A DNA stretch of 64,000 bases from Lingula anatina (Eukaryota > Animalia > Brachiopoda). The notes beneath the pieces are model-generated. The model worked only from the letters and a program-made list of their open reading frames with translations, ran no database searches and was not told where the DNA came from. Of the stretch, positions 4,029-60,300 are shown in pieces. Numbering within the stretch: the first letter of the stretch is position 1; the number at the start of each line of letters is the position of its first letter. A program made the position numbers and the translations under genes. Where the stretch lies: the NCBI GenBank assembly GCA_051362555.1, contig CM120643.1, positions 21,890,848 to 21,954,847 of the forward strand. Direction: 5' to 3'.

Positions 4029-4085
<57 letters not shown>

Positions 4086-7000
4086 ATTACTTGGGGTTTT
4101 GTGTATTAAGAATTAAAAATACATGTATATGCTGCCAAAAGCACCGTTAACAATTTTTTCTTTTTGTTCACATCAATTATCCAGTTTTTATCAGCAGTTA
4201 CTGTACGTGTTACTAGTAATAAGTTTCAGACTGATAATCAAAAATGTTATTTGCTAATATGTATTTTTATTCACATGATTGTATTTTACTGATCAGGTTC
4301 AGTGTACTTTTCAAATGGAAGTCATATCCTGAATTTTACCACAGCCGGAGGCTACACCAGACTTGGCATTTTACCACTAACTAAGGTAAGTGGCAAACAT
4401 TTATCAGTTTGTTATTGTATGCAAATTTTGTGGTCACTGTAGCACAATGATCTGGATGCATTAAGATGTTGTTCGCAGCTAGTATTTAAATCAATATTAC
4501 AAGCTGAAACAATATTAATTTTAATTAAAAGTATTTTGACAATTTTCTAGTTCTTATATTTACTTGAATCAATAACTGCATTGTAAACCTATTCAGTCAA
4601 CTGAACGTGTATCAAAGTATGAACAGGTAAAGATGATCAATATTTGGTGACATTGAATGTGATTTTAGAAAACATTACTAAATAGCTAAGTCAGAAAACA
4701 CTTTCCCAACATTTGCACTACTATGCACTTATTGAATGAAGTAAGTATAACCCAGGTGTAATAATTATGTTGGGAAAAGCACCTTTGATGACACAACAGA
4801 AGAATTAAAAGAAAATAACAATATTTCAAGGTGAATGGATAAATATTTGTAGGTTACCATTCATATTATTTTTTAGGAATCTAAAAGTTGAAATACCAGG
4901 AGTTTTTACTTGTCATGTTCAGTGTAGAGTAAATTTGAAATTCCTAGAAACCAAAACATCTTAAAAATTTAATTTAAATTGATTAAGAGTTATCAGATTA
5001 TATGTTATCCAGTAAAACATTGCAGACTTTAGTGACTCCCATTCAAATATGAAACCAGGTGCAAAATAATGGGTTTAATATCTGAGCCACTATCTGCAGA
5101 CACAAAAATTTGATTCTTTACCAGGTGTTTTATGTTACAAATATCAGGTACTTCATTAAGTCATTGGAAGTTTGCCATTTAAGAAAGGTGAAAGAATTGT
5201 AAACCTATGTTACTAAGATTGGAATTTTGCTGGGATTATTACCTTGACAAATTAACCTTCAGGAAAGATATTATCATGGTACTAGTTTTTTTCTAGTAAT
5301 TAAAGCAAAGATATATTGAAATCAACTTTTTTGGAAGGATGAGGTTTGGAAGGCCACATTAGATCTATTTTTACCATGCTAGCAGTTTTTTTTTTTATAA
5401 TAAATTGTACAACTTATTAATTTATTTATCTCTTTTTTTTTAAGGTAGGAGAATGAAAGTCATCTAGGCAAAGTATCTCTCATAATCAAACCAGAAATCA
5501 TTTCACCCATTTTATATATATACTAAATAATAAAATGCCTTTGTGAGAAAATCCTTACTCTAACCATCCTTCTGCTAATAAAGCCCTGTAGAAGCCACAT
5601 GCGTAGGACTTATCTACCTAAATTCACCCCATTTGCGAGGCTCTTACTTTAAACAGGAAGAGTGTCCGACACATCCATCGCAAGACGTTAACCTCAACTA
5701 CATATTAGCTTTATCTGACTTTGGCTCAGTTCAATCTGAATATCTCCTCATGTACCATATCCATCAAGATAATGGCCATTAGTACATTGATTGCAGCAGA
5801 TCTAGATCTGCCCGAGCAGATGGTCCTGATTCTCAGGTTTGTTTTCACTCTGTGATTGCTGTACACCCTACTGCAATGTATGTTGTTATAAAGAGCATGT
5901 GTTCTATTCAGGAAAAAAAAAATTAGGGCTAATTGGTTTTTTGACCAATTTCACATTTTTTTTCATCTTCTAGTTGTATATGTATATAATTTTATGTATA
6001 AAATCAAACTTCAAGTTAGACCATGCAATTTGGATTAAAAATAGTGAGCCTGACCCTTCTGTAATAACAATGATGTTATTTGTTTTAATAGCTACACATA
6101 CTAAGTGTGCTTTATATAATGGCTCACACATCATCCAGATAATCGCATTACTGCAAAGTGCTTCTACATGTAGCTTTATGACCATGTATTTATTTGTGTT
6201 TACATTCATTTAGAGTGTATTTTGGGGAAGACACAGGCATAAAGTAATAGCCTAACAGGTAACAGTCATATACAGTATCTGCAGCAAAAAGGATTAAATT
6301 GGTTGAATGTGACTTTGTTGCTGAAAATTTGATATTTATTATTTATTTGCGAACAAATGTAAATTCCAGCAGACATCTGAATTCCTCACAGAGATTGATA
6401 GCAATAAATTTTACTCAGCTTTTAATCATCAGAAATCCAAACATCAAGAAACACATTTGAAAATTATGTTTTTTAATGAATAAAAAAAGTTGACTTTATC
6501 CAAAAAAGGAAAGTATTAGAACGCTGTCAAAATCTGTATTAACATTGTGTTGGATACCAAATGTTTTACCACTTAATCTGCAAAGTAAATACATACAATT
6601 GGTATATGTATGTACATGTTAGAATAGAAATGAAGAATTTTAAAAAGCAAATTTGAAGTCTTGCTTGAATATGATAATTATTTGTTTTATTACCTTCCTC
6701 AGAATGAAATAAAGAGACATATGTTTATATAATGAATAACTTATTAATCACAATCACCTGGTACCCTTGTTACAGCACTATCTTTGTTCAGTTAAACACC
6801 TGGTGCAAAACTTATTCACTTACTACTTTAAAGGCTGTTAAAATACCCAGTTCACTTGAAATAGACTCACCTGAAGTTTTAGTGGCCCTATTAATTTTGA
6901 ACTGAACCATCTGTTAAAGACATATCCCATGAAGTTAACAGGTAATCTATGACCATTTTGAAATTCTAGGAGCCATTAACCTTGGTAATATTCCATTTAA

Positions 7001-8476
7001 GGTCACAGTGTTCAGGTTGTAATAATCTTTGTCACAGATCTTCACTTGGGGAATCGGGGGTTAATGGCCATTACCCGTAAGCATCAAATGAAAAAGTGAT
7101 AGACAGAATGTAGTCAGATTGCATAAAAATTGACTTATTGCATAAAAATGCATAAAGATCGACAGATTGCTTTATAAGGACAATTGAAGCACTAATTAAT
7201 GCTCCTTGGCCATAAGTACGATTATAGCAAGCACCTGGTATCCCTTACCACATATTGTTTCACATTTTGAATTTCAAAATCAATGACATTAAAAAATGTA
7301 CATGTAGTATAAAGTGATCTCGAGAGGTAGGATATCAATCACAATCATGTAACTAAGACTTATGATAAAAAATTAGAACTTCAATCATGAATCATAACTG
7401 AGAGCATTTAATGTGACATTATCTGTTGACTTTTAAAGAGTGCATCATCTATGTTTGATCATCATCATCATCTAATGTTACAGTAGGAGAACTTACGAAA
7501 TCATGATCCTAGATATTGTGACTTTTTAACATGTTTGTATTTAATTTTCAACATTAAATTTGAGTTAGTCTATAATCTTTCAGTAGTGAAATTTCAGTGA
7601 CTAGTTTTATCGAGCAACTTTTCATGGAACAGTTTTGTTGATTCTACTATTGATAAGACTTCATTAGAATCCAGCAGACAGATAGCCAAGTTAATTGCAT
7701 CCTTGGGGGCTAGAAACCAATCAGAATTGAGTGGAATGCACCTGATTCATTGTTCATGAAACTGATTAACTCAACACAGATCTAATTTAGTATCCAAATA
7801 CTTCTTACAAGAAATACTGTGCATTCTGTTATTTTTATTGTTTATTGGGTTTTACATGATAATGTAATAACTTTGGTTATGTACATACCATAATGTATAT
7901 TTATAATGCACTAATTATTTAAATATCATAAATGATATAATAGCTCCCATTCATGGACTATAGGTTTAAACATGCATCTTACAATGTGTCAACATTGCCA
8001 ATTAAAATATTAAAGCCCTTTAAAATATTTTTAAAATATTTATTAATTAAAATATTACAGAATGATCTTCATTTCGTAATTTTTGATAATAACTTATGAT
8101 TGCATATTAATAATTAAAACTTTTGTACACAAAATGTGCTTAATTGTGTAAATATCATAGAAAACTTTTGTTCCAGCCCATAAGTAGATAAGAAAAATGG
8201 AGTCCCGGCCTGCTATGTGTTTGAATATTTGCATCTTTTCACCACTGCCAAGACCAACATCACTTCAAAGGGCTGTTGGTTTCCTTTGGCCTACATCAAC
8301 AGGAATACATCATACATTCAAAAATCTGTGTCATTCTAGTAGAACTCTTGTTTTAAAAGATCATCAAAAGCTGTCCAGGAACTTTAAAGTGTTGATTTCA
8401 AAATGTTGCCAAGAATATACCTTGAAGTTCTTAAATGCCACTTGACAAAAAAATGAATACATAAATAAAATAAATA

Positions 8477-8513
<37 letters not shown>

Positions 8514-11500
8514 GTAAAGAAAGAAGATGACAATAATAAGAAATAAGAATTTAAATATGGTAAAAGAAACCCTTATTTTATATAGTATACCGTACTAGTC
8601 TAGTGGTAGAAGGCATTAAACCTGAGACTATTTAGGTCTATAAGTTTGTATGCTAAAATGCTTAGTTCCAACAATACAACAATACATGTAAGACAGAGAG
8701 GGAGAAAGAGAATGATATTAGTTAATAATTATAAAAATTAAACATTGGTTTAATTGGAATAAATAACTGTTATATAATCGTGAACCGTTTAAAATTTCCA
8801 GGAACATGGTTATTGCTCACAAATATCAAATATCTCCCTTATTCTGGTTATGTCTTGGTTTCTAAATTCATCCAATTTTTTTTTTATCGTCTAAAAATAC
8901 CTTTTAACATGAACCCAGGTGGTACTGTATTTAAAACCTCGCAATATTTTTTTTCAGATTATGGTATAACTAATATTGCAGAACTCTTGAGAAAACATAT
9001 AACCAATTACATTTCTTCAAACCCACAAATTAACCAACACATCGTACAATTCTTTAGCACTAACAAAGTGATGCCCAGCACTAACACTCATCTGCAGTGG
9101 TAGTGCTGGTTATTGTGGGTTTGGTGGTTAATAAGGGTGTTGATGCTAAAAGATCTGTGGGTAGTGTTAGTAAATGCCTTATCCATTTATAAGGCCTGTA
9201 TGAGTAACCAGCACCATATGCCTGTCAAAATTACCAAACATCACTGCCACAGAGTACAGCAAGTCCAGACAGGAAGACGGTCAAATTACCAAGAATTTGC
9301 TAACCCAGCATGCAGGTAGCTGAGTTAGGGCTTGAAAGGTCTCGGATTCTCATTTGTGTGATAAAAAACATAACTCAGTTTTGGGGAAGATAACGTGTTA
9401 TATAAACTTGGCAAGCTGCTAGTCATAGGTGGATTCCTCTGATATTAGTGTGGGTGTATGAAACTTATTTTTAATCAGCCTGGGGGTGAATATTCCAATT
9501 CTAGGAGTTTCTCTTTAGTATTGATTTATTGTTATTATTCATTTTGTTAGTCAAAAAGTTGCCCTATCTATTAGCTCATTCTGCAAAATAAAAGTCATGC
9601 ATGTCAGGAGTTCTTATAGATCATTAATTTTTAATAAAAGCAGTGCCGCATTTAAATGCATTGTTTGACAAGTTGACAGAATTCAATTAAATGACACAAA
9701 AACTGTTCAGAGAGCCTTGCTTAGGCAAGGGGTGACAATTACACTCAAGAATATAAATCAAATTTGCCCCCCAAAATTTTTTGTAAAACTGAAAGAAAGG
9801 TCGACAAGGACTGCTTATAATTTGATTAATTTCAATGGAATCTAACAATTAATGGAATCTTACAATTTATTGCCTTCAGAGAAACCATACCCGTATCGTT
9901 GGGCTGGCCGTGGATGTGGATGATGGAGTCCTTTTCTGGTCGGATATCAGCGTGGAAAACAGAGGGATCTATACAACTTCTCTCACTGCACTGGATGAAA
10001 GGAAAATTATTGCAGGTATGGCAGAAATTCTCTTTGATGTTGTTTTGTATGGAAACTGAGTCATGATGCTTACAGCTGGGGTACAGTGTTATGAAGAATT
10101 TGAAGAAAAGGATAAAAAGCTTATAACTGATGTTATAAGTAATATTGGTGTTTCTAGTATGACAATGACCTGTTGGATGTGACCTTGATGTGTTGATGTG
10201 GCATTGAATTGTTGGATGTGACAAAAAACTGTCTGATGTGACATTTGAATTGTTGCATGTGACAGTGAATTGTTGCATGTGACAATGAACTGTTGGATAT
10301 TACAGTTAAATTGTTGAATGTGACATTTATGTCTTGATGTGACATTGAATTGTTGGATGTGACAGTGAGTTATGAGTTATGACATTTGTCTCTCTAGGTG
10401 TAACGGTTATATCTTTATAATATGTGATTGTCTCAATGATGTGGCTACTAGTATATATGACAGTGAACTATTGTTTTTCACAGTAAGCTTTAGTGGCGCA
10501 TGACATAATTATATGTTTATGCCATAGACTGCATTCCCACAAATTTTAGATTGATCTATCCCCGTGGGGAGTCTCACTAGATTACTGTTAGCTAGTTAGC
10601 CGGCTTAAATGTCTGTCCCACCTACTGAAAGCTGTAAGGGGGTAATTAACTTCCGTGCGCACTCGGCTGATAGCAATGTACCGAAAACCCCTAGGGAGTT
10701 AGGTCGATCCAGATGGATCAATCTAAATCTGTGGGAATGCAGTCATAGTGATGTTAAGGATGTCTCTGGATATAACTATGAAATGACTCAAATATGACAA
10801 TTGTATATTTACATATCAGAGAGGTACATGCCTGTCCTTGAAGTCTGTGGTTGACATTGTGCTGTGTCTGAATGTAGTGGCAACATTGACAATGCTAGTT
10901 TTTGAAAGTAGGTTAATTACATACTGTATAATATAATATAATATAATATAATATAATATAATATAATATAATATAATATGTATATATACTCCCAAGAAAA
11001 TCCAAATTTTTCTTTGAAAAACACTATATAGACTATATCTTAATCTAAAAGGTTTGAAGAAAATGAAAGAGATTTCAGTTTCTGTCCAATTTACAGGATG
11101 TCTTGATAAGAAAATTAAGATTTGACAGACAGGTGCATAAAGACAGTTAAAATGTGTACAGCATATCTCCACAAAATCATTTATTTACACAGACAGGAAA
11201 AAGTAAAAACCATCTCTAGTGCCTGAGGAACATCAGGCTAAAAAAAGTAATTTAAGACCAGACGGGCCTCTAGGAATTTGTCTAGAATTTCGAAAAAAAA
11301 ACTAACATGCTTAGGTCAAGTGTAAATTGGCAGAAAAGCCACCTCACCTTTTTGTACATGAGTGACCCCAGCAACTTGGATTCCACAGCCATTTCACCTT
11401 CATTACCTTGTGATATTTAGTGGAGTAGAAGACAGGTTGAGATATGCTGAAGATTTATTGCTTCAGGCAACAGGTTGTGAAGCTTTTTTTTTCAAGAGAA

Positions 11501-14000
11501 TTTGAAAGCATCTTAACGATGGTCAAATAGGAACCTAATGAGGGGTGTGGTTTTTGTTGTCTTTACATGTTTCTGAAAGATTTCTTTCCACCTCTTGAAA
11601 GGAAAAAAACATGGAAATTAATTAAGATTTGAGTATTACATTTACAGCCCGGGGTTCAAAGTCTATCAAATTCCCAAAGAACATTTATTGGGATTCCATC
11701 TTTCATTGATGACTGCGGTCAGTGTTGTAAAAAAAAAAAGGGTGTGGATGATTTCATCTCTGAGATAATTGACTGCAGCGTTATCTTTCAACTCTGAGGA
11801 ACTGCTAGTTCAAGCAGGGCGTGTTCATATCCTGCTTGGTATTTCCTTTCCACTTACCTTAACCATTTGTATGCACAGTGTCTTCCAAAGCACTGCAGAA
11901 TGTTTATACACAACATTTTTTTGACAAGTGTGTTCCCTTTATATTTTTCTTATCAATATCCTAGGAAAAGAGAAATTAGTCCTGAGTACACGCAACGTAA
12001 AAGATGTACATTACAGTACGGTATGTACTAGAATGTCAGTTACACAAAAATGATCTTGACATCTTTTGTCTGTTTTGCTGATTACATAAATTAAAGATTA
12101 AACCATGATAATACAAAATTTTGTGCACCATTATTTAGAGGAGTGAAAGTGTGATTTGCATAAAAAGTAGGGAATTTTTTCTATTTATGTTTTAGTAAAA
12201 TAACTGAAAATTGTGAATATTCAGTAACGAAAGTTCATTTGCTGGTCAGATTTTTTAATGGTCAGAGCTATATCAAATTTTCTTTTCTAACGAATATTAG
12301 ACATTTGGTGAGTGTTAATTTATACTCCAGAAATTTCTCAATTATTTTTAGTTTAAAAAAATTCAAATTTCTCAACTGGATCTTAAAAATTATATAAAAA
12401 ATGACCACTTTTAACACGTTTACCTAACTTAAATCATAAGATTATTTTAAAAACTCAGTTCTGAAATGTTCAACTTAAGCTTTTAAGTGCCTTATATCAG
12501 TAAAGATGTATGCCAAATGTTAACAACTTATAATGCTCTTCTTCAATCATCTATTACAAGGCTAGCATGAATATAATAGAAAATACAGATAAGATAAAAA
12601 ATTAATGATTTAGTATAAAGTGCAGATCATATTAATATGTTACTTATTTATACAATTTAGGTACATGTGCTTTGTACAGGTGTATACATTTCTCAGGTGT
12701 ATACAATGTGCACAGGTGTGCAGTGTGTTCATAAAGCATATGGCCCATGTTATGTTTCTGAGCTGGAGAAAAGCCACCATTATTTTAAGGTAGTTCATAA
12801 ATAGAGAAATGATACAGTGCCATTGGAGCCTAATCATGCCGTGATAGATCAAAGGAAAAAAGAGTAAAGTGCGTAATGACAAGAACTGCAGGATACAAGT
12901 ATACACGCACACACATAAATGTAAAGAGAGAGAGAGGGAGATCAGGAAATTTCCTTTGTGCTGGGCATGAATCTTTATATTTCTTTTTTGAAACCTCTAT
13001 GCAGAATGATGCTATGGTTTTTAATATTCTTTTTTTGTGATTGATCTTTTTATGTCAAGCTAGTACTGCTTTGGACATTTTGAATTAGTTCAAGTAGAAT
13101 AGTATGAAACAGTTTAGCTTATAGTGTTTGGGAAACTTTTGGGCATATTTTTCACCATGAATTTGTGATAAGCAAAGGCCATAATCAGTTGTATACTATA
13201 AGATATTAAGATAAATACTCAGACCCAGTTTAAGTTCCTGGAAGTCAGCAAGTCCACAGAGACTCTAGCTGAGGCTTTCCTATCCGCTGCCACTCTTCCA
13301 CAGGATGCTTCAGGTTTTTTTTTTTTTTTTTGTACTTCTTTGGAGATCAAGCTAAAGCTAGCTGGCCTGAACTGAATTTTTTTATTACATAACATAAGAG
13401 GGCGTCAAAAAATTTACCTTGTAAAAATATATTGTACTATCTTACAGTCTGCAATTTATGAACACTGCAATGACACAGACACAGTGACAATTGTTTCTTC
13501 TGCACCATCTTGCATCAGCCAGTGTGCAATTTGTATTAATACTTGGTAGTTTGAAATTTTTTTGCAAATATCTTGGTCTGCTTGTTTGTATATTTTTTTG
13601 TTCACTTTTCTATTCACAATAGAGGCCACAGTACATTTAAGTATATGTCCAAAGCTTAATATATATTAAGCAATCAATGAAATATATAATTTCAACTTTA
13701 TTGATCTACTTAATATTCATTTGAATTACCATCTTTGAACAATTGGTTTATCTCAATAAATTAATTAACAATCAACAAAATCATCTTGAACTGTATTTCC
13801 AGACTGTGGGGAAGTCCATGGACTGTCAGTGGACTGGCTGAGTAACCAAGTCTACTGGACAGACACCACCAAGAAAGAGGTGCTGGTCTCAGACTATGAC
13901 GGGAAATACACCAAGACCATTGCTTTCTCTGGTATGCTGTGGCCAAGGGGAATAGTGGTGGACCCTATCCACAGGTTAGTCACACGCGCGCGCGCGTGCA

Positions 14001-14045
<45 letters not shown>

Positions 14046-17000
14046 TCTGAGATATCTCTTCTTCCCCTTCTCCCTCCCATAAAGTGATAACAAGCAAAAT
14101 GACAGTCAATTTTTCCATCTCTGAAAACCCCATCAAACTTTGATAGAATTGTCCCCTTCTACTATTTCTTATTTGCCTAGAGAAGCAAGGCAGTGTTTTT
14201 TATCCATTCGTAACAGTACTAGTAAACAGATATGAAATTCTTGTGTTACAGGAAACCTCAACATCCCGTATCTGAGGCATGCATGCACATCTGTTTTCAA
14301 GTGATGATTTTTTGTTATGTGGAAGATATCACCTGTGCCCTTGACTTTGCTGTTTACATGGAAAAAGTTCAAAGCTTATGAGATAGATATTTGAAGTGGT
14401 TAAGAGAGATAGAATATGTTTTGCTGTAGGGCTTCAGTGTGTTTTTTAATGGTTTAAGAAAAGTAGAATACATGCTGATACCAAAAAAATTATATACAGT
14501 TTTTGATTTGATTTATTAATTGTTTTTGTTTTGTGTAACTAAATATTGTTGTCACTCTTTTATCATGGAGTTGCTGCCTCAGAGATGATGCCTGGAATAG
14601 AGTCTGCTTCAGCACCTGCTGCTCCTACAAACTGTCACATAAACCAATATGTTACACCTGACACAATGCCAGCTCAACCACAGTGGCACACTTATCACAT
14701 GATTACATCTAACATGTTGTCACCCAGAACACAGTGTCAGATGGAATATGCCATATCACACCTGGTACAGTTTCACACCTACCACAATTTCACACATATC
14801 ACATCGTCACATAATTTCACTCCCAGCATGTTGTTAATTTTAGCACTATCTACTGGGGTGATCAGGGTCGTAGGACAATTGAACATGCACAACTGGATGG
14901 TTCTGTGAGAGGGACTCTGGTCAGAAAGGGAATATATTGGCCAAATCAGCTGACCATCAATTATGCAGATAGGTAAGAGGTAACAGTTGGATTTGGATAT
15001 TGCTGCATACTAAACAGTAAACATACTTAGTTGAGGTCATATTTCTACAAGATTGCTGGTGTGAACTGGACCCAGTTTGGAAAACATTTTAATACCTGAA
15101 TTATATATATGTTGCAGAAAGAGATTTTTGCTGAGCCTAACAAAAATACAATTTTACATAATGCTTTGGTCACTTCACTGTACCCTGAGTTTCATAGGCC
15201 ATTTCAAAACTCACCTCTCTACTTAGTATCAGCATACCTGAGCTGTTACCAGTATACTGGTATAGAAAGGCGATTTTTCAGTGTCCTCTGAAACTCGGGG
15301 TGCTTCACTATCATACTATCACCTTGACTTGTTTTTTGTGTGTGACAGCATATTGTACTTGAAATAGCCTAATTACCACACTAGCACACACGTGTACTCT
15401 GCCATGTCCATTATTATATTGAATGATGCTCTTTGTCACCCTTATTATATATTGCTGCGTAATAGAGGCTCTCTTCTTTACAGTAAGTTATACTGGGTAG
15501 ATGCTTGGAACAAGACAGTGTGGTCATGTGACCTGGATGGAAGCCACGCCCAAGTCCAGTATGATTTCCGCGACACTCTTCAAGCCAACCCATTGTTTGG
15601 CATAGCAGCTGATGGTACGTACAGTATTCATTTCAGTGTGATTCATTGAATATGAGAATTTATAATAAAAACTAAATTTCCACAATAGAGGAAATTACTT
15701 GTTTTATCTCTCTGCAGCTAGTATCATGATGCCAATCATTGCTGGCTGGCACATCCAGGACTATTACAAACAGGAGGGGTGCAAAATTGGTAGATAATAA
15801 TACAGCATAGCTGTATGGCTCATAGCAGCTTTTATCCCTGCCATGCAAAAATACCAGCTTTGCCCTAAGCCCAAAGCTACATTCAACTTATTTTGTAGTT
15901 ATTATAATAATACTTGTAATAGCCACCAAACTCACTTGCCCATTCATATCACTGACATATTTTTCTTATTCTACCATAAATTTAACACAATGTCAAATAT
16001 AATATTAAGATAATAACTTATAGTAGGGAGCCAAACTCCAAAAGCCTTCAAAAGCCTTCCAGTAAGCAGATTCATAAACCCCAGATATCAGACTCTCCGA
16101 CGATATATTAAAAAATTTTATATCATAAACATTTTTTTCACCCTTATTTTTAGCCTTGGCTCCCCAACTATTAATTGTAGCAATTGTCACATGCTGTGAA
16201 ATTGAAAAGACTGCCATTTGACAAATTTTAGTTTTATCACATTGTCACAACTAACACAATGTCACTCATCAGTTATTCTAGCCTTATATGCCTAATCTTA
16301 ATTTTCTTTCTGTATTTCTAAAAGGAACAACCATGTACTTCAGCACATGGTACAATGGTGCCATCTTTTCTACAGACCTTGATAAAAAGAACAATTCCGT
16401 GAAAGTTGTCTTGGAGGGGATGACAGGAGGGGAAATGTTCAGCATCACAGTTGCCAGCTCAGCAGGCCAACCAATGGGTAAGCATCTTTAATGGTTACCT
16501 TTTTTTCGCAAGTGAATTTTATTTTATCTTCAGAAATACATACACTCATCAGCTGATGAGCAATATGTACTGATACAACATACAGTGAGTTAACCCAATT
16601 CCCCAAGTGCTTCCTATCTTAGGCTTCGTTCACATGCAATGTCTATTTTCTATTTTCTATTTTCTATTTTCGGTATGTCTTATGATCACGGTCTGTGCAC
16701 TGAATATCCCGCCGCGTAATTACTGGCAGCGCGAGCCAGTTACTTATAGTAACTTATAGTAACTGGCTCGCGCTGCCAGTAATTACGCGGCGGGATATTC
16801 AGTGCACAGACCGTGATCATAAGACATACCGAAAATAGAAAATAGACATTGCATGTGAACGAAGCCTTAGACAAGCCTGCCAGTCATTTGTTTATGTTCA
16901 GAGTTATTCTAAGTCTGTTCCCAGCGGGTCCTGTTGACTTGGCCCTGGTGTTAGTTTTTATACTCTGGGGTGCATGGTCACAAATATGGGTATGAATACA

Positions 17001-31286: not shown

Positions 31287-34200
31287 ATGGGAGAATCCGT
31301 AAGGACGACTGACGGGACAGGTAAATTTTGTTTGTTAAAAGTGATAATGATCTGTCACTATAGAGATTAAAGATATTTCATTTTAGTCTCACCCATATAA
31401 AAATAAATACAAAATTAGAAGCAGTAAAATATGGCTGTTCTATATAGAACGGTGAGAGACTGAATATCCCTTGAAATGTACGTTATATAGCATTATTTAT
31501 AGATAAAGCGTCTCCTTAATTCTTAGATCGGCAGCAACTCTTGGCAACTAAATTAACCATGTTATCATTACTAATCATAAATACAAATGTTCTGATCATT
31601 TAAAAGGTCAAAATTGTTTAAACTTCTAGCAATTTAAAAAAGTTCAACACGTTTATCAGTAAAAAATGACAGTTACACGTAAGTGGGAGGTGGACATAAA
31701 GGGCAGGTTCTTCCCACAATAGCTTTTCATATCAAGCCGTTTTTATTCGAAGTGGGGCAACCCCACACGTCATCTTAGCAAGTAACCTTCGTAATGTATG
31801 TGTGTGTGTGTGTGTGTGTGTGCGTGTGTTGGTTTGTGTGTGCGTGTGTGTGTGATCGAGAGAGAGAGGGGGGAGATGGAAATTGTAGGGTCGCCTGTGT
31901 CTTTGAACATGCTTGCTTGTATGTTGTGATTTTGCTGTGCAGTTAAGTTTACAAGTTAAGTTTCCATGCATGATAATATGTTTACTAGTAAATGTGTCTT
32001 ACTAAGAGGCATGCATTCGAAATTTTAGGCTATCAGTATACAGATAACTTTTACGTTACTGACGAAGTGAAAGAACAGTTTGACACGGATGGTTTCATTA
32101 TATTGCGGTAAGGCAGTAAACTGTTTCGAAACCTTACCCTCTTGTTTGCATGATTAACAAGTTATCGTAAATGAAAGTTGAAATATCTATCCAATATCAG
32201 CACCCCCTGTAGACTTTTTGCTAGTAAATATTGGCATCTAACACTTGATATTTAAAATTACATTTAATATAATTTAAACCGAGTTTATTAACACACATAT
32301 TTGATATTTTTTTATATTTGTTAAAATCAGAATGTAATCTTTCATATATATCCGGTAAAGTGAAGACTGATAAAATTCAATAAGGACAGATGACGCCATC
32401 ACCAAACATAATATTGTATGTATCGACCGATTATGTAATCACCGAAATTTTTACCAATCACGGAAAAAGAAAAAGACCCATTTGCGTCTGATCTTGGAAG
32501 ACATTGACATTCAGACAGCACTTGAACCTTTTTCCAACCCTCTAATGTCTTTGCGTTCAGGAATTTTTTGGACACCGAAGAGGTGACTAACTTGAGAACA
32601 GCCCTGGAGCAAGACAAGACCCTGGAGGACAATTACTATACCAGGGACGACGGGGAGGGAAATCAGGCCAAAATGGCAAACTGGAATCACCCTGTGGATG
32701 ACATAACCGGGATGATAGGGAGGAGTGATAAAGCTGCCGGTACCATGGAAAAGGTAGCTACAGTACATGTAGGCCTCATAGTCTTTATCGACTGTCGTTC
32801 ATTTTTCCTCGAATTTTTCACGATTTCACTGCACAAATTGTTTTACCTAATACTAGGCCTTATTCTCTACATTTTTTGAAGGGAAAATCACAAAATGTGT
32901 TATTCTATTAATCTTATTTAGACTGCCAGGCTTCAGTATTCAGTTAAGATGCTGAGATTATCTATCTCTGTGGAAATTTGGCGTCCATTTTAAGCCTATA
33001 AATTAAATTTTGTATCTTAAGTAAGCAAACAAATTAAAAAAATCCAAACTTTGATTCCAGCTTTTAGGGGGAGAGGTATATCAATATCACGCCAAAGTCG
33101 TCATGAAAGAACCGTTCACAGGGGGTGCATTTGTGTGGCACCAGGATTACGGGTAAAATTTTACTGGACCCTTTTTGTCATTATTTTGATATTATTTTGA
33201 TATACCATGTGTCATCGCACATTGTACAAACCTGTAAGCTGCCAAGGTTAAAATTTGAATAGCGTGCAGCCAGTATAGAATAAAGCTGTCTGGTAACGAC
33301 CTTTACGCACTGCATCACTCGCATTCGCATTACCATTACAAAGAGGAGGCTGCGTACATTTTTCAAAGAAAGCAAAGATGAGACTGCAAGCTAGTTCTCT
33401 CTGGTTATGCATTTTGACCATTGATTTTAGCATTAGCGCCATGATGTTTATGCACAAGCTGTTGAGTCTACATTTTAAGTTTCAGTTAAAAACAGTTCCA
33501 TTTAGTCAATATGATGCCATAACAAAATTTAGAAAAGGCATTTGTTGTTAGATGAGTTTCTAATCACGATATCAAGAAAATATTCTCATATTTTCTTGAT
33601 ATTGGTGGTTATTTACTGCCCGCCCTGCTAATTGCTATTTTCAGTGTTTGGTACCATTACGGCAATCTGTTTCCAAACATGGGCACAGTGTGGATTGCTG
33701 TGGACAGAGCAGACAGAACAAATGGGTGTCTACAGGTAATGAAACACGACTTGTATGTACATGTAGATATCATTAATATTCACAGAATCCATCAAGGTGA
33801 ATGCTGATGCCAATGTTCAATTCTATACAAAGAATGATTCAAAAGCATGAAATATTGATGTATCTGCAGTCCGTAAAGGAAGCAAAGGTTACTCCTACTT
33901 TTGGTAAAAATTTAGAACAATGGTGTAAAGTAACAACATTTATATTGCATATTCATTTCCCGTTCATATTTTGGTGACACCACCAGCTTTTCCAGTTTTT
34001 TTCCTATAAAGAATGTGCAAGTGACATCCGCTAACTTCATACACGCAAAGACAAGTACCTTTCAAACCTATTTCTACATGTCCGCCACTGTATAAATTAG
34101 ACCAAAGAGACTATATTTTATCACCACATCCTTTATATACGTGCAGATACTAATTGGCTCCCATCAAGCTGGGCGACTGGAGCACGTGAAAGTCGGTGAA

Positions 34201-38924: not shown

Positions 38925-41900
38925 GGAGAGAGAAACTGTAGGGTCTCCTGTGTCTCTGAACATGCTTGCTTGTGTGTTGTGATTTTGCTGTGAAGTTAAG
39001 TGTACAATTTGTTGTTATTTCCATGCATGATGTTATGTTTACTAGTAAATGTGTCTTACTAAGAGGCATGCATTCAACATTTTAGGCTATCAGTATACAG
39101 ATAACTTTGACGTTACTGAAAAAGTGAAAGAGCAGTATGACAGGGATGGTTTCATTATATTGCGGTAAGGCAGTAAACAGTTTAGAAACTTTACCCTGTT
39201 GCTTGCATGATTAACAAGTTTCCTAAATGATAGTCGAAATAACTATCCAAAACCAGCAACACCCCCTGCAGACCTTTTATGCTAGTGAATATTCGCATCG
39301 AACACTCGATATTTAAAATTACATTTTATCTAATTTAAACCGAGTTTATTAACACACATACGCGTTGAGTGTTATTATTTGATAAATACAGAATGTGATC
39401 TTACATATATATCCGGTAATGTAAAGTCTGATAAAATTTAATAAGGACAGATGGCGCTATCACCAAACATGATATTGTATGCATCGACCGATGACATAAT
39501 CGCCGAGATTTTTTTACCAGTCACGAAAAAAAGACACATTTGCGTCTGATCTTGGAAGACATTAGTAGTTAGGAATGTGGTTTTCGACCTGCAAATTGAG
39601 AGGCGTTATATACTTTTTAATGTAATTTTTTTGGATGAACCTTGAACATTTTGAGGCGCAGTCTTAGTAAGCTGCTATTTTTAGCCACTGACTGGGTCCG
39701 ATGTACAATTCTTGCTAAACGTAGCAAGAGCTGTACACAGGAGCTGTTTTTTAACTATTTACTCTGATTGGAATTTTAATGACGACCATTTTATTATATA
39801 AAACTTGTTGATATTATAATTTCATCTCGGACCTTTGTAAGCGAATTTAAATGACGATTATAAAAACTTGAAAACCCAAAGCAATGTTTACGAATTATTT
39901 ATTAATGCACTAGATACATTTACATAACATATCAATTGTTTTTCGTTGAACTATTAAGAATACTTTATTTTAAGACACTAGATATCTAAGGGTTCAGTGG
40001 ACACACCGTCTTCTAACACTTTTCTTTTACAATAGAAATAACTAAAGGCATCTCTGCGTTGAACGTAGGAATACATCGTGTTGTTGAATAAACGTATCCC
40101 CCTATTTATACCACTGCCGCTTTGTTTATTTAAAAGTACATCTAAATACTTTTGTTCATTTATAACATTGGAATTTCTATTTGCAGCTAAATTTCGATTT
40201 GGTGTCTTCCCCAAAACAGTAGTAGGTTTTACTACACAGGCCAACGATACCGTCACCAACCCACTCGGCTTTGAACAACCCGGGCGTCCGTTTGTCGTAC
40301 GCCTCGTGCTCTGGGGTATCAGTACGCGGAAACCACAGATGTTTCTCGGCTTCGTACTGCGCTCTCATGTAAGGTTTTACTACGTCTTCTAAGCTTTCAG
40401 CCGAAAAGGCGATGTAAGCGGAATCCGTGTCCATTTCGCAGTATTGGAAATCGGACGGATCCACGAATTTTTGCATGAAGTCGTAGTAAAACTCCAACAT
40501 GCGTAGCTTGGCGTACTGATACACCATCACGCCTATGTGTAGAGGAAGGTCTAATTTGATGATTTTTTTGTTTAGCTCGACCTCATACACGTTTTCTGTA
40601 ATTCGATCTAAACGTCGAAAACGGTGACTGTTGACTTTACGAGAGGCTGTTGCCTCACCGCAATACTCGGTGTCGCGGTGCCTTTCTTTGTTGGTCACCG
40701 TTTTCCCGTAGCCCGAGTTGCCAATGAGCTTCATGGTGTCGGCGACGATGGCTTTGGTCTTGTCTCTGTCTCCCTCCCTGCGAGCGTCACTCACGGCGTT
40801 TCCGAAATGCTCGAAACAGGCTTTCGGGGTGTACTCGATTACCTGGTGGATGCGCGTCACGCAAAGACCGTGTTCCAAGTACCATTTCAAAAGCGGGGTC
40901 GCCAAAACGATTTTTTTCTCCGAATAAACTCCCGATCAACGAACGTCTCGGGACACTCATAATGTTATTTTCCTCGGCAAAGTTTTTCATGTAAGGACCG
41001 ATGTCGTCGCGAGAAATAGTCGTGTTTTTGAAAACGGGTGGCATTTCGGAGAATTTGTGTCTGAGGTTGGACGGGACCTCTATGTCGCACTCGACGAATC
41101 CAAACAGTTTGTCCCCGAGGACGGCGTCTAGGATCTCGTCGAACGTGAGCCGATACCTATGCTCCGTGGGGAGCGTGTACCGCTTTCTGAAAGTTTTCAC
41201 TTCATCGCTTTTGCTATGAAGTTTTTTTCCAATCGCACTCCCACATTTCGACGAGGTCGTAGCCGCACTCCCGAATGTACTCGCTATTAATTTCAGTTTC
41301 GATGCGTAAAGATTCCATAGTGACCTTTTTCGTATCGTTTATTTCCCTGTAGGTGCCATCTTTGTTTCGGTTCAAATGACACCGATGACCGTGGAAATAA
41401 CACCCATGGTACTGATACACTGTCTGCGTTTCTCGACAAAACCCATCCACCGGTAGCCGACGGCACCCGACGCGCTTTTCTGTACCGTTGAACTGATGCC
41501 GGATTTTCTGACCTGTGGAGTGTGCAACCCAGTCCAACCACATCGTTGCCTCGCGTCCTCGCGGGTGAGAATATTCGCGCGTATAGTCGGACTCTTCGCG
41601 TCTGCGGATAAACGTGCCCGTTGGCATAGGTTGCATGAGGCACCACAGGTATAGCGCGTTGGCGTCGTACCCAACGATCTTTTTGCACAGCTTGGGCGCT
41701 TCAGAATTCGCCTTTCTAAGAAAGGTCACATTCTTCTCGTGATAGCGGTGGAAGATGATGCTGGGACCGCCCACGATGGCGTTTTTCAGAAGATAGTAAA
41801 GATCGCTGTGCTTATCGTCGAAAAGGGTAAAAAATGCGTCACCTACATTTTGAAAGAGGTACTTCAACGTTAAACCCGGCACGCTGATACCGTCTTTAAA

Positions 41901-44900
41901 CATATCGATACCTCTTTCTTGGTAGAAGGCGAACATTTTTTCCACCGCTTCCAGCATCGGTTCAACGTCTTTGTTGTTGTACCAGATGAGGAAATCGCGC
42001 ATCGTCTGCATACCGTTTTCTACCCACACGCGTTGGCACTCCGCGTAATCTTCCTCTGTGATATTACTCTGTTTTAGTTTTGAGTAAAACTCTTCGCGGG
42101 GAGGGAGATTAGGGCATTCGAGCTTGTCCAAAGAGTCCATCCACTCGTAAGGGAAGAACCCCTTGGACTCTGTGCATTCGAACGCCTTCAAGAACTGACC
42201 ATAGCTGCATCCGGGAGCCAAATAGTTACAAATGTCCAAAAGTTTCAGGCGTTCCGATTTCAACACCATGAAATTGTTGTTGCGTTTTACGACAAATTTC
42301 AATGTGTCCGCCAACAAAGGCAAAAACAGCGTTTTCATGGCGTTGAGATCGTAATGCCCGCTATTGAAACCTAAGACGGGTAATTCCATTAAATATTGAC
42401 TAAATCTACGGATAAGTTTTGATAAGTAATGTTTTTTTGTTAAGTCTTCTACATCTTCGTCCTCGCTTTCCTGTAGCATTTGTTCAATGTCTTTTTCTTT
42501 TTTTTCGTTAAGCTTTTCAAACACCCATGTAAACTTGTCCCTTTGAAGCTTTTCGACCGCGCGGCTCATGTCTTGTAGGGTGTTGACGAACATTTGTACA
42601 GCTAACGAGGGCTCGCCGTCGGAAATAATGCATTTCGGCTTCGTGTGACCCGGCACGTTGCTGCACACGCTGACGCTGAGGAAACGATGTTCGTGTTCTA
42701 AACTCAGCTTTTCGCTGTTCTGCGGCTCCTCCGTGCGGGGTAGCAGACACTCGATATCGAACGCCGCCCAGTATCGATAGTACCTGTCTTCCTCGGTGAC
42801 GAAAATGCCCTCGTCTTCGAGGAGGTCGAATACGGTTTGCTGGGGAGTGTACGAATTGCAGGAAAACGAAGACGGTGACGTGTTTGCAGAACTCGTTCGT
42901 CGCTCTACTGACAGGTACGACGACACCATGTCGCTGAACGTGCACGAAAATCATTTTTCGTACATCAGCGACGTGGACAAATACTGCCGCTCGTTTTGCT
43001 GTTCGAGGTGCAGCAAAATGTTCAAAAGCAAATGGTCCCTTCAGCGCCACGAACAGACCTGCGACGTCCTCGTCGAACACCGTTTTCCTGGCAAGGCGTA
43101 CACTCCCCAGCAAACCGTATTCGACCTCCTCGAAGACGAGGGCATTTTCGTCACCGAGGAAGACAGGTACTATCGATACTGGGCGGCGTTCGATATCGAG
43201 TGTCTGCTACCCCGCACGGAGGAGCCGCAGCACAGCGAAAAGCTGAGTTTAGAACACGAACATCGTTTCCTCAGCGTCAGCGTGTGCAGCAACGTGCCGG
43301 GTCACACGAAGCCGAAATGCATTATTTCCGACGGCGAGCCCTCGTTAGCTGTACAAATGTTCGTCAACACCCTACAAGACATGAGCCGCGCGGTCGAAAA
43401 GCTTCAAAGGGACAAGTTTACATGGGTGTTTGAAAAGCTTAACGAAAAAAAAGAAAAAGACATTGAACAAATGCTACAGGAAAGCGAGGACGAAGATGTA
43501 GAAGACTTAACAAAAAAACATTACTTATCAAAACTTATCCGTAGATTTAGTCAATATTTAATGGAATTACCCGTCTTAGGTTTCAATAGCGGGCATTACG
43601 ATCTCAACGCCATGAAAACGCTGTTTTTGCCTTTGTTGGCGGACACATTGAAATTTGTCGTAAAACGCAACAACAATTTCATGGTGTTGAAATCGGAACG
43701 CCTGAAACTTTTGGACATTTGTAACTATTTGGCTCCCGGATGCAGCTATGGTCAGTTCTTGAAGGCGTTCGAATGCACAGAGTCCAAGGGGTTCTTCCCT
43801 TACGAGTGGATGGACTCTTTGGACAAGCTCGAATGCCCTAATCTCCCTCCCCGCGAAGAGTTTTACTCAAAACTAAAACAGAGTAATATCACAGAGGAAG
43901 ATTACGCGGAGTGCCAACGCGTGTGGGTAGAAAACGGTATGCAGACGATGCGCGATTTCCTCATCTGGTACAACAACAAAGACGTTGAACCGATGCTGGA
44001 AGCGGTGGAAAAAATGTTCGCCTTCTACCAAGAAAGAGGTATCGATATGTTTAAAGACGGTATCAGCGTGCCGGGTTTAACGTTGAAGTACCTCTTTCAA
44101 AATGTAGGTGACGCATTTTTTACCCTTTTCGACGATAAGCACAGCGATCTTTACTATCTTCTGAAAAACGCCATCGTGGGCGGTCCCAGCATCATCTTCC
44201 ACCGCTATCACGAGAAGAATGTGACCTTTCTTAGAAAGGCGAATTCTGAAGCGCCCAAGCTGTGCAAAAAGATCGTTGGGTACGACGCCAACGCGCTATA
44301 CCTGTGGTGCCTCATGCAACCTATGCCAACGGGCACGTTTATCCGCAGACGCGAAGAGTCCGACTATACGCGCGAATATTCTCACCCGCGAGGACGCGAG
44401 GCAACGATGTGGTTGGACTGGGTTGCACACTCCACAGGTCAGAAAATCCGGCATCAGTTCAACGGTACAGAAAAGCGCGTCGGGTGCCGTCGGCTACCGG
44501 TGGATGGGTTTTGTCGAGAAACGCAGACAGTGTATCAGTACCATGGGTGTTATTTCCACGGTCATCGGTGTCATTTGAACCGAAACAAAGATGGCACCTA
44601 CAGGGAAATAAACGATACGAAAAAGGTCACTATGGAATCTTTACGCATCGAAACTGAAATTAATAGCGAGTACATTCGGGAGTGCGGCTACGACCTCGTC
44701 GAAATGTGGGAGTGCGATTGGAAAAAAACTTCATAGCAAAAGCGATGAAGTGAAAACTTTCAGAAAGCGGTACACGCTCCCCACGGAGCATAGGTATCGG
44801 CTCACGTTCGACGAGATCCTAGACGCCGTCCTCGGGGACAAACTGTTTGGATTCGTCGAGTGCGACATAGAGGTCCCGTCCAACCTCAGACACAAATTCT

Positions 44901-47900
44901 CCGAAATGCCACCCGTTTTCAAAAACACGACTATTTCTCGCGACGACATCGGTCCTTACATGAAAAACTTTGCCGAGGAAAATAACATTATGAGTGTCCC
45001 GAGACGTTCGTTGATCGGGAGTTTATTCGGAGAAAAAAATCGTTTTGGCGACCCCGCTTTTGAAATGGTACTTGGAACACGGTCTTTGCGTGACGCGCAT
45101 CCACCAGGTAATCGAGTACACCCCGAAAGCCTGTTTCGAGCATTTCGGAAACGCCGTGAGTGACGCTCGCAGGGAGGGAGACAGAGACAAGACCAAAGCC
45201 ATCGTCGCCGACACCATGAAGCTCATTGGCAACTCGGGCTACGGGAAAACGGTGACCAACAAAGAAAGGCACCGCGACACCGAGTATTGCGGTGAGGCAA
45301 CAGCCTCTCGTAAAGTCAACAGTCACCGTTTTCGACGTTTAGATCGAATTACAGAAAACGTGTATGAGGTCGAGCTAAACAAAAAAATCATCAAATTAGA
45401 CCTTCCTCTACACATAGGCGTGATGGTGTATCAGTACGCCAAGCTACGCATGTTGGAGTTTTACTACGACTTCATGCAAAAATTCGTGGATCCGTCCGAT
45501 TTCCAATACTGCGAAATGGACACGGATTCCGCTTACATCGCCTTTTCGGCTGATAGCTTAGAAGACGTAGTAAAACCTCACATGAGAGCGCAGTACGAAG
45601 CCGAGAAACATCTGTGGTTTCCGCGTACTGATACCCCAGAGCACGAGGCGTACGACAAACGGACGCCCGGGTTGTTCAAAGCCGAGTGGGTTGGTGACGG
45701 TATCGTTGGCCTGTGTAGTAAAACCTACTACTGTTTTGGGGAAGACACCAAATCGAAATTTAGCTGCAAATAGAAATTCCAATGTTATAAATGAACAAAA
45801 GTATTTAGATGTACTTTTAAATAAACAAAGCGGCAGTGGTATAAATAGGGGGATACGTTTATTCAACAACACGATGTATTCCTACGTTCAACGCAGAGAT
45901 GCCTTTAGTTATTTCTATTGTAAAAGAAAAGTGTTAGAAGACGGTGTGTCCACTGAACCCTTAGATATCTAGTGTCTTAAAATAAAGTATTCTTAATAGT
46001 TCAACGAAAAACAATTGATATGTTATGTAAATGTATCTAGTGCATTAATAAATAATTCGTAAACATTGCTTTGGGTTTTCAAGTTTTTATAATCGTCATT
46101 TAAATTCGCTTACAAAGGTCCGAGATGAAATTATAATGTCAACAAGTTTTATATAATAAAATGGTCGTCATTAAAATTCCAATCAGAGTAAATAGTTAAA
46201 AAAACAGCTCCTGTGTACAGCTCTTGCTACGTTTAGCAAGAATTGTACATCGGACCCAGTCAGTGGCTAAAAATAGCAGCTTACTAAGACTGCGCCTCAA
46301 AATGTTCAAGGTTCATCCAAAAAAATTACATTAAAAAGTATATAACGCCTCTCAATTTGCAGGTCGAAAACCACATTCCTAACTACTGACATTGACATTC
46401 AGGCATCACTTGAACCTTTTTCCAACCCTCTAATGTCTTTGCGTTCAGGAAGTTTTTGGACACCGAAGAGGTGACTAACTTGAGAACAGCCCTGGAGCAA
46501 GACAAGACCCTGGAGGAGAATTACTATACCAGGGACGATGGGGAAGGATATCAGGCCAAATTGGCCAGCTGGGGTCACCCTGCTGATGACATTACCGGGA
46601 TGATAGGGAAGAGTGAGAAAGCTGCCGGTACCATGGAGAAGGTAGGTTCATTGGTCTTACAGCATTTGTCGACTGTCATTCATTTTTCCTCGACTGTAAA
46701 ATCATGATTTGACAACACGAATTGTTTACCTTCATAGTAGGGCCTACGGCTAATTCTTGACATTTTTGGTTCAAAATGTGTTATCTAATCAATGTTATTT
46801 TAATTGGCTTCAGTCTTCACTTACCACACTAAGTGGAAAAATGTCGCGCATTTTTAGCTTATATATATTTGAATTTTGTAAAACAAATTCCAAACTTTGA
46901 TTCCAGCTTTTAGATGGAGAGGTATATCAATATCACGCCAAAGTCATTATGAAAGAACCGTTAACAGGAGGCGCGTTTTTATGGCACCAGGATTACGGGT
47001 AAATTTCTAAGGACCGTTTTTTTTTTACATTATGCTCACATGTACATTGCATGTGTCATCGTACAATCTACGATCCTGGAAGTTGTCTAGATAAAAATGT
47101 GAAGCCAGTATGGAAAAATTCTGTCTGGAAACAACATTTTACGTTCTACAACACGTGCATTCACATTACCAACACAAAGGGGAGGAGAGTCAATTTAACA
47201 AGAATGGTAGTCTTATGAGTCGAAGTCCGAATTCACATACAAGAGTAATTAGGGTTAATCGTAGTATTGGGGTTGTTACATGGGACGAATGTCACCTGCA
47301 CAAAGTAATAGGGAACGGACTACGGTTCCTAGGGAAATACCATTCCCTACAAAGGCGCCATTTTCTACACAATAATGTACAATACCAGCAGAGCAAGTCT
47401 TCTGTTCCAACATTTAATTTTTCAATATTCTTGTTTTCACGCAGCGCGCCAATTCTACATTATGATAACACCTACAACGTTGGTCAAAAAGGTTGTCCCA
47501 CCCCCATTTCCATGTACTTTTATTTACAAATGATCACATCACAGCTGTATATTGTTAGAAATAGTTCTTTTTATTACAGATACCGTGTCTAACATGATTA
47601 ATGGTTAAAAATACAAAACAGTGGTGAAAATATACATATTTTATACCATTAATAAGAGGTACCCCCTCAAATCCACTGTTTCACTGTGACTTCTACAGAT
47701 ATAAAGAAATAGCTATTAAATTGAAAATACGCCATCAAATGTCAAATGGGTTGTTCTCCTTTGCATTGCACACTCCAATTCATGTCACAGTTAATTAGTA
47801 AGTTTAATATCAGGGCTCAAAGATGGTGGTTGACAGTACTATTTAGGTAAATATCATGCCAAACTTAGGAAAGGCATTGGAGTTCGATGTGTTTCTACTT

Positions 47901-57314: not shown

Positions 57315-60300
57315 ATGGGAGAGTCTGTAAGAACGACTGACGGGACAGGTAACTTTTGTTTTTTTTTTCAATGATATTGACCTGTCTATATAAAGATTCA
57401 AGATACTTTATTTCACTCTCACCCATATAAAAAGAAATGCAAAATTAGAAGCAGTAAAATATTGCAGTTTTATATAAAACTATGAGAAACTGAATAATAC
57501 TTAAAGTATACGTTAAAGCATTATTATAGTTAGTTCCATAAATCGGCAGAAGGTATGGCAACTAAATAAATCGTGTCATTATTAATAGTCACAAATAAAA
57601 ACTTGTTCTGATCATTAAAAAGATCAAAATTGTCTTTAAAACGCCTAGCAATATTAGTTTAACGCGTTCATCAATAAAGGACAGTAAACTAAGAAGTGGA
57701 CCTCGTCCTCAATACACTTAGATTCACATATAATAGACAGGTTCTTTCCGCAATAGCTAAATTTTCATATCGAATTTCTATTCGAAATGGGGTCACCACA
57801 CGCCTCACCTTAGCAGGTGCGCTTCGTTGTTTATATATATACAAGTATATTAATATATAACGTCATGACTGACGTGTATTTAAAACACTTATTGTTGGCC
57901 CAGGAACAATTGTCGGCAACTGTGCGCAGACTGCTTATTTTGATTTATTATCATAGGCATGTGTCTTTGTTAGCGAGAGAGAAAAGGCAGACTGTAGTGT
58001 CGAGTGTGTCTTTGGATGAACAGAATGGCCTATTTATTGTGATGGTGTCGTGAGGATAAGTCCACAATCCATTGTGATTTCCATGAATGATGTTGTGTTA
58101 GTAAATTTGTCTCACTGAAAGGTATGTATTTTAAATTTTAGGCTACCAATATACAGATAACTTTGCCGTTACTGACGAATTGAAAGAGCAGTTTTACAGG
58201 GATGGTTTCATTATATTGCGGTAAGGCAGTAAACAGTTTCAAAACTTTGCTCCCCTTTTTGCAAGATTAACAAGTGTTCCTCCGTAAATATAAAATGGAA
58301 TAAATATCCAATATTAGCCCCCCACGCAGACCTTTAATACTAGTTAATATTTGCATCGAACGCTTAACATTTTTTAAATTAAAGTTTGTCTAATTAAAAC
58401 CGATTAATTAAGACCCATACGAAAGGAGTTATTATATGATAAGAACAGAATGTGATCTTATATCCGGCAATGTGAAGTTTAATAAAATTCATGATAGCAG
58501 ATGACGCCATCACCCAATGTGATATTGATCAACCAATGACCGACATTAAATACCGACATTAATTAACAATCACAGAATAGGACACATTTATAACATAATC
58601 AGTCAGACTACATATATGTGGTGTGACAGCGATGTTGCAACAATTGACTCGAATCTCGGAAGACATTGACATTCAGGCATTCATTCACTTGAACCTTTTC
58701 TAGCCCTCTTATGTCTTTGCGTTTAGGAAGTTTTTGGACACCGAAGAGGTGACTAACTTGAGAATGACCCTGGAGCAAGACAAGACCCTGGAGGACAATT
58801 ACTATGTCAGGGGCGATGGGGAGGGATATCAGGCCAAAATGGCAAACTGGAATCACCCTGTGGATGACATAACCGGGATGGTAGCGAGGAGTGACAAAGC
58901 TGCCGGGACCATGGAAAAGGTATCTACAGTACATGTAGGCCTCATATCCTTTGCCGACTGCCATTGATTTTTCCTCGACTATAAAGTAATTTGACTTCAC
59001 AAATTGTTTTAATTGACGCTAGCACTTATTATTCACAATTTTGTGAAAAAAAATATTAAGACTGGCTTTAGCGTTCAGTTAAGATACTGAGATTATAGGC
59101 CTACATACATATCTGTGGGAATATGTCGAGTATTTTAAACCTATAAATTAAAATTTTGTCCCTACAGTAAGCAAACGAGTTAAATAAAATTTTCCAATCC
59201 TTAATTTTAGCTTTTAGGGGGAGAGGTATATCAATATCACGCCAAAGTCGCTATGAAAGAACCATTCACAGGTGGTGCGTTTGTATGGCACCAGGATTAC
59301 GGGTAAATTTCACAGGACAATGTTTTTTTACATTATTTTCACATGTTCACTGCATGCGCCATCGTTCAATGTATGATCCAGGAAGTTGTCAAAGTAAAAG
59401 TGAAGATTGTGCATCCCGTTTAGAATAACAAGGGCTGCATAAGACATTTTATGTACTGCAACACTTGCATTCACATTACCATTACAATGAGGAGGAGAGC
59501 CTGTGTGACAGGAATGGAAGTCCTACATACTGTATAGGAACCGAACTCTGTGGTCACATTAAGGTTAATGCACGTTGGGGTTAGTAGGAGTATTGCGGTT
59601 GGTATATGGGACGAATTTCACGTGTACAAAGTAATGGGGAACGGACTACGGTTCCTAGCGGACTATCATTCCTTTCAATTGCGCTGTTTCTACAAAATTA
59701 CGTACAATATCAGCACGCAAAGTTTTCTGTCCCAACATTTTATTTTTCAATAGCCTCAGATTCAGGCAACGCACCACTTCTACATTATGATGGCACCGAT
59801 AGGCCCGTTACATGATAAACAAGTAGCTAGCAGCTGAAAACATATTGTAAACAGCATGTCTCAACGCTTGTTATCACATTACTATTAAAAGTGTGTGAGA
59901 GCTGACTGTTTTCACTTTATAAAGAAAGAAGAAAAGATGAAACCGCGAGTTAGTTATCTCTAGTCATGTTTTTTGGCCATTGGTATTAGCCTAGTATTTG
60001 AACAAGCTGTTGAGTTGGCGCATTTGAACAAGCTGTTGAGTTGGTACACAGTGTCATTTAGGTAAATATCATGTAATAACAAAATTTAGAAAAGGCATTT
60101 TGTTTCTGATGAGATTTTACTCAAAATATAAAGAGTAAATTCTCATAATTCCTTAATACATGTATGATAGTTATTTACTGCACTTGTGATTACTGCTATT
60201 TTCCAGTTCTTGGTACCTTTACGGCAACCTGTTTCCGGACATGGCCACAGTGTGGATTGCTGTGGACAGAGCACACAAGACAAATGGATGTCTGCAGGTA

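Follow-up and report, generated by a model that had tools for sequence, protein, structure and literature searches.

Introduction

Polinton/Maverick elements are reported with terminal inverted repeats (TIRs) of 46–1,447 bp, the upper figure being the longest vertebrate TIR, and with total lengths of 12.7–24.6 kb; their ends carry the motif (AGT)2//(ACT)2 or (AG)3//(CT)3, with AGTAGT/ACTACT the commonest (PMC8097293; statements on this and the other published systems cited here refer to excerpts of the sources). Here we describe an element from the brachiopod Lingula anatina that has Polinton ends and is almost entirely a palindrome. It lies at positions 39564–46387 of a stretch of 64,000 nucleotides (hereafter the window; assembly GCA_051362555.1, contig CM120643.1, positions 21,890,848–21,954,847 of the forward strand). 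We read it, with a probability of roughly 0.45, as a non-autonomous palindromic Polinton derivative that arose by a template switch at a native repeat during strand-displacement copying, and that was then inserted as a unit by the integrase of a helper element. Like Polinton/Maverick elements, it has (AGT)2//(ACT)2 ends, a 6-bp target-site duplication (TSD) and a protein-primed DNA polymerase gene (PolB). It departs from them in its size of 6.8 kb, in arms of 3.29 kb that are more than twice 1,447 bp, and in a PolB that is truncated, broken, duplicated and outward-facing. An intact PolB and the integrase, ATPase, protease and capsid genes of an autonomous Polinton are missing, and both TIR and element size fall outside the autonomous range.

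Extended inverted termini carrying second copies of core genes have been published for butterfly polintons, whose gene-bearing TIRs measure about 2 kb (bioRxiv 10.1101/2025.02.07.637071); mobile polintons that lack polB are described in the same preprint. The butterfly elements are, however, full-length, with a large unique centre and with hexon and adenain in the TIRs, whereas ours is 96% palindromic and the 243 bp at its centre come from a truncated gene. The layout matches that of maize Mu killer, in which both TIRs come from the same end, together with an inverted partial gene, and which lies beside or in host transcription, but Mu killer is a cut-and-paste transposon with demonstrated silencing, for which the paper disputes a read-through hairpin model (PMC3440606). 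In Galileo and Foldback-type elements, as here, the TIR is extended by recruiting adjacent internal sequence and is longest in non-autonomous copies; Galileo belongs, however, to the P superfamily, and its extensions measure hundreds of bp, with TIRs of up to about 1.26 kb (PMC3573991). Snapback genomes of adeno-associated virus (AAV) replicate with helper proteins, and a template switch or end joining has been proposed for them (PMC8235507). Like our element, they consist of a single terminus and a portion of a gene, mirror-duplicated around a loop, the AAV form being helper dependent; AAV differs in being a single-stranded DNA parvovirus that primes from hairpins and whose snapback genomes are found in particles, whereas the present ends are of the protein-primed type and the element is chromosomal, with a TSD.

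To our knowledge, no one has yet observed a Polinton in the act of replicating; the strand-displacement and panhandle model of these elements is inferred from gene content. Palindromic mini-replicons of phage phi29, in which one origin of a terminal-protein replicon was inverted and duplicated by polymerase template switching, are said to have been described by Esteban et al. in 1997; they differ from the present case in having been made in vitro, in belonging to a phage and in not integrating. The founding Polinton papers reportedly name non-autonomous Polintons. No palindromic Polinton was found, by title or opening of the abstract, in the literature searched, which lay outside Repbase Reports, subscription journals and supplements, so that described long-TIR non-autonomous Polintons may be missed. 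Two candidate precedents were set aside: the palindromes of one preprint are, in the excerpt considered, 52-nt terminal hairpins (bioRxiv 10.64898/2026.07.28.741278), and another treats, in its corresponding part, Caenorhabditis elegans PolB-end remnants and TIR-driven inversions, not fold-backs (bioRxiv 10.1101/2024.01.15.575659).

A palindromic element with Polinton ends

Self-comparison of the window resolves the element (6,824 bp) into a left arm at 39564–42853 (3,290 bp, minus strand) and a right arm at 43097–46387 (3,291 bp, plus strand), which are reverse complements of one another and enclose a spacer of 243 bp (42854–43096, plus strand), with 96.4% of the element self-complementary. 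These dimensions agree with the initial annotation of the locus, which had been made from the sequence alone and gave arms of about 3.29 kb and a self-complementary share of about 96%. Five differences separate the arms, namely four substitutions (39812/46138, 40371/45579, 40396/45554 and 42719/43231) and a single-base gap (near 39746/46204). GC content is 45–49% within the element against 33–38% outside it.

The left terminus reads AGTAGT and the right terminus ACTACT. GACATT forms the final 6 bp of the left flank (39558–39563, plus strand), and the right flank opens with two GACATT units, of which that at 46388–46393 (plus strand) adjoins the element. Three units at the filled site compare with two in the paralogues whose site is empty (32497 and 58659), so that the net gain is a 6-bp TSD; the end motifs, the GACATT flanks and the duplication had all been proposed previously. 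The two introns taken at that time to show the empty site do so, each with a tandem GACATT pair, while a third paralogue (~52670) carries a short deletion at the insertion spot and is uninformative. The host sequence to the left of the element differs from that to its right, and each side aligns collinearly with all three paralogues at 74–90% identity.

The single-copy part of the element (spacer and right arm) consists of one protein-primed PolB gene and a 415-bp non-coding end. Protein matches to PolB span 42847–45969, in keeping with the earlier view that each arm is a terminus plus the outward-reading 3' part of this gene. There are 1,826 such matches at E ≤ 1e-20, with lengths of 955–2,725 residues, and Pfam assigns DNA_pol_B_2 (PF03175, E = 5e-8). 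Among the best 120 matches, the named proteins come from lancelets, echinoderms and cnidarians, with identities not exceeding 60% (54–60% at best); Polinton polymerases of these groups are the nearest relatives. The gene is a 5'-truncated pseudogene (42847–45972, plus strand) with exonuclease, polymerase and Vsr-like motifs, and the spacer encodes a C2H2-like zinc finger that falls below the Pfam cut-off. About 410 N-terminal residues are missing relative to the homologue P0001 (median 330 over the best 120 homologues), and the frame is broken three times, near 44722–44745, 45033–45075 and 45763–45775. The breaks recur in both arms because none of the five arm differences falls at them. At the three coding differences, the ancestral state favours each arm once and is even once.

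With PolB filling 42847–45972, 415 bp are left, and none of the seven other proteins of a related Polinton at locus L012 (an ATPase, an integrase and five products of unnamed open reading frames) matches the window; the reported absence of integrase, capsid, ATPase and protease reading frames is thereby upheld. With a truncated and broken PolB and no further Polinton gene, the element is non-autonomous, as had been suggested, and could not have supplied its own polymerase or integrase. Locus L012 itself (2688–14049) holds a near-complete Polinton, with PolB, ATPase, an rve integrase-chromodomain protein (Pfam) and the five unnamed reading frames on one strand.

The join and a native inverted repeat in PolB

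The join between the two arm copies had been placed at 42853, which is indeed the edge of the arm, but native PolB continues 7 bp into the left arm, to 42847. This emerges from a reading-frame alignment across the join with 113 of the best 120 homologues, those having enough upstream sequence. The V and Y codons at 42847–42852 are native (V in 111/113 homologues, Y in 99/113), and conserved residues upstream of V-Y, such as N (98/113), F (90/113) and E (108/113), are absent from the element. The spacer is thus native PolB coding sequence, and the seven native base pairs starting at 42847 are the mirror of 43097–43103. A native V-Y that mirrors 43097–43103 implies that the parent carried an imperfect inverted repeat. 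Its inner half lies at 42847–42868 (22 bp, plus strand), the first 7 bp being inside the arm and encoding the conserved V-Y, and its outer half at 43081–43103 (23 bp, plus strand); the two agree at 20 of 23 columns and are separated by a loop of 212 nt.

We assessed this repeat in several ways. Of 100,000 fold points drawn at random from this DNA, 15 scored as high, and an equally good repeat anywhere was seen in none of 15 codon shuffles. When windows were scanned along the real 3.5-kb single-copy part, two scored higher and two tied, placing the repeat within the top five. When only the perfect 10-bp core was considered, the chance frequency was 92/200,000. Lastly, the predicted DNA fold of the spacer is closed by the repeat stem on either strand. 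As the join coincides with this native repeat, it is, judged from the DNA itself, homology-guided, at an imperfect inverted repeat of 22/23 bp in PolB that would provide a ready primer for a template switch.

The element end in a multi-copy Polinton family

Ten DNA sequencing runs of one organism, from four studies, contain this stretch; contigs of the four runs that were compared match the element and show that its end is common to a multi-copy Polinton family. In all four runs a contig ends exactly at 46387, which confirms the boundary and indicates many insertion sites. Exact matches to the arm of 251–636 bp occur in contigs of runs X1 and X2, either of which may be the source of the window, and contigs of X1 and X3 are near-identical to it and lack the first frame break. 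One X2 contig (record 15, 45949–46387) runs from the PolB stop to the terminus, so that PolB adjoining the terminus is a family trait. In contigs of X1 and X9, and in a joint match of X1, X3 and X9, the similarity covers 46053–46387 and is lost further inward. If these diverging ends are the other end of a short-TIR element, the native TIR would measure about 335 bp (46053–46387, plus strand; mirrored at 39564–39896). The initial annotation had raised the alternative of a parent family natively possessing 3.3-kb TIRs; the contigs point to about 335 bp instead. Family contigs diverge at the fixed points 46053, 46179 and 45965, and immediately inside 46053 there is a copy of the 46265–46291 motif; several subfamilies or satellites have this terminus in common.

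Contig depth, being no copy number, was not used as evidence. In X1 it is 143–186 for exact arm contigs, ~87 for a window-like spacer and 77–82 for the host, a pattern of about 2:1:1 such as one palindrome would give. In X2 the exact arm contigs, which include the first frame break, have depths of 192–352, a host contig having 84, and the count of spacer contigs of the window-like type is zero at 42903–42919.

More distant relatives were collected as 81 loci, comprising the best 80 of 227 relatives among 284 metagenome stretches and one distant locus from viral contigs. Fifty of these have at least 600 bp downstream of PolB, where the next gene is an ATPase in 13, an integrase in 23, another Polinton gene in one and no L012 gene in the remaining 13. 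A PolB-last layout fits locus L079, where two L012-type reading frames lie 8–9 kb upstream of PolB and none within 2.1 kb downstream. Kilobase-scale inverted arms were found in none of the 81 loci (longest self-match 259 bp), a result that is uninformative either way because short-read contigs would collapse such arms. The element terminus has no match in any of the 81. Among viral contigs, a PolB N-terminal query returned no relative in six candidate stretches, alignment A1 gave one distant locus of 28, and the 17-base terminus had three exact matches, about what chance would be estimated to yield.

Origin of the palindrome

In the origin that we favour, a nascent strand would begin at the PolB end, cross PolB and reach 42847, where its 3' end would anneal to the other repeat half, 212 nt behind it on its own strand. 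Synthesis would then return to the terminus and produce a molecule with two identical origins and integration ends, which would be inserted in trans, as a unit, with polymerase, terminal protein and integrase provided by a helper Polinton. The frame breaks would either have been in the template already, or the arms would later have been corrected against each other. Supporting such a course, both ends derive from the PolB end and meet at a single join. The earlier proposal that one end was copied back on itself is borne out in this respect and by the join on a native short inverted repeat; its preference for fold-back over deletion is not, as deletion within a longer palindrome gives an identical join.

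Several observations weigh against a template switch followed by helper-mediated insertion. First, the TSD and the microhomology do not discriminate, being given equally by repair in place or by deletion in a longer palindrome. Second, no strand-change joint at the fold point is present among the listed contig matches of the four runs, and a second copy of the join was not seen, though no whole genome was searched for one. Third, the three shared frame breaks mean that the template was unable to copy itself. Fourth, 37 of the 50 related loci have another Polinton gene directly after PolB, which makes PolB followed by the terminus unusual; with an outward PolB at the end being a minority layout, the immediate parent may have been reduced or already palindromic. 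Lastly, the outer 335 bp hold slightly more than their share of the arm differences (2/5, P = 0.08), as repair in place predicts.

Such repair would start from an ordinary, already defective Polinton resident at the site; a DNA break within it would be healed by fold-back priming at the short inverted repeat, which copied the PolB arm, and by re-annealing to the left end through the 335-bp TIR, leaving a one-off fossil that never moved. We regard this as unlikely, though a serious candidate. It should produce the same join with the original TSD kept, and it explains the breaks common to both arms without a helper. The outer 335 bp make up 10% of the arm and hold two of its five differences, a weak hint in the same direction, but the enrichment is not significant, and only one of the four substitutions falls in the TIR (P = 0.35). 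A weak hint to the contrary comes from 46101, within the putative TIR, where both arms have a substitution and the listed contigs of all four runs read another letter; unless the substitution was present in the parent, the two outer TIRs are then not old ends of independent origin. As a parallel to repair in place, Galileo TIRs lengthen by taking up internal sequence, for the most part in copies that are non-autonomous (PMC3573991).

Alternatively, the 3.3-kb arms could have been inherited from a longer, natively palindromic and polymerase-bearing parent. There the two halves of the repeat would lie in direct orientation, one on each arm, and a deletion through their microhomology would be expected to give the identical join. 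Gene-bearing TIRs of 2 kb are published, in the excerpted text, for butterfly polintons (bioRxiv 10.1101/2025.02.07.637071), and PolB leads straight into the terminus in the family contigs too, unlike in the 37 related loci. The three shared breaks would be explained if, in a palindromic lineage already established, the arms had been corrected against each other. The second class of family ends, diverging at 46053, speaks for the existence of short-TIR elements, however, and the PolB-last layout is compatible with L079 as it stands. A longer palindromic parent was not seen either, though no search aimed at one was made; we find this origin quite improbable.

The element is very probably real. 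An assembly or library artefact, in which the left end of an ordinary Polinton allele was fused to a chimeric fold-back molecule, is most improbable: amplification chimeras are known to form at short inverted microhomology, and the matches listed include no contig across the join or across a junction with the host, but a chimera would mirror one flank, whereas the flanks are unlike each other and both run collinear with all three paralogues, and the four substitutions between the arms, the net 6-bp duplication and the exact end motifs on both sides likewise argue against it.

Host genes and neighbouring repeats

The element occupies an intron (39165–46448, plus strand) of a PhyH-family dioxygenase gene, the second of four tandem copies that extend over ~29900–62600 at a spacing of 6–7 kb and whose introns are 74–96% alike. 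The last-exon motif, when searched for, turned up in the element-bearing copy alone (48418); its absence from the other three copies may reflect divergence or damage there. The tandem GACATT pair is already present at the two empty sites (32497–32514 and 58659–58676), and the short deletion of the third copy (~52670) lies at the same spot; speculatively, an earlier insertion with a 6-bp TSD at this site could have left the pair behind. Elsewhere in the window, a MITE (miniature inverted-repeat transposable element)-like near-perfect palindrome of 255 bp lies at 16617–16871 (inner arms 89 bp, loop 13 nt, outer arms 41 bp), and the next host intron contains a very high-copy repeat (47147–47600), with a contig depth 100 to 2,000 times that of its flank.

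Biological meaning

The particular value of this element is that gene landmarks still mark its fold point to the base. A palindrome whose fold point can be read in this way and lies on a native inverted repeat is a by-product of the sort predicted by the strand-displacement model; AAV makes such by-products and phi29 is said to do so as well. Should the element prove single-copy and formed in place, it would be a tidy but ordinary repair fossil. Its intronic location makes it a possible source of silencing RNA acting on the whole family. More tentatively, we suggest that it might belong, as a newly arisen member, to a class of palindromic Polinton satellites that is as yet undescribed, an integrating counterpart of copy-back defective viral genomes, which a helper would propagate, whose arms would be kept corrected, and which, on read-through of the intron, would give a 3.3-kb hairpin RNA directed against the family polymerase. 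If the join recurs at other loci, Polintons would spawn integrating satellites akin to defective interfering genomes, and giant gene-less palindromes with Polinton ends would have a mechanism of birth.

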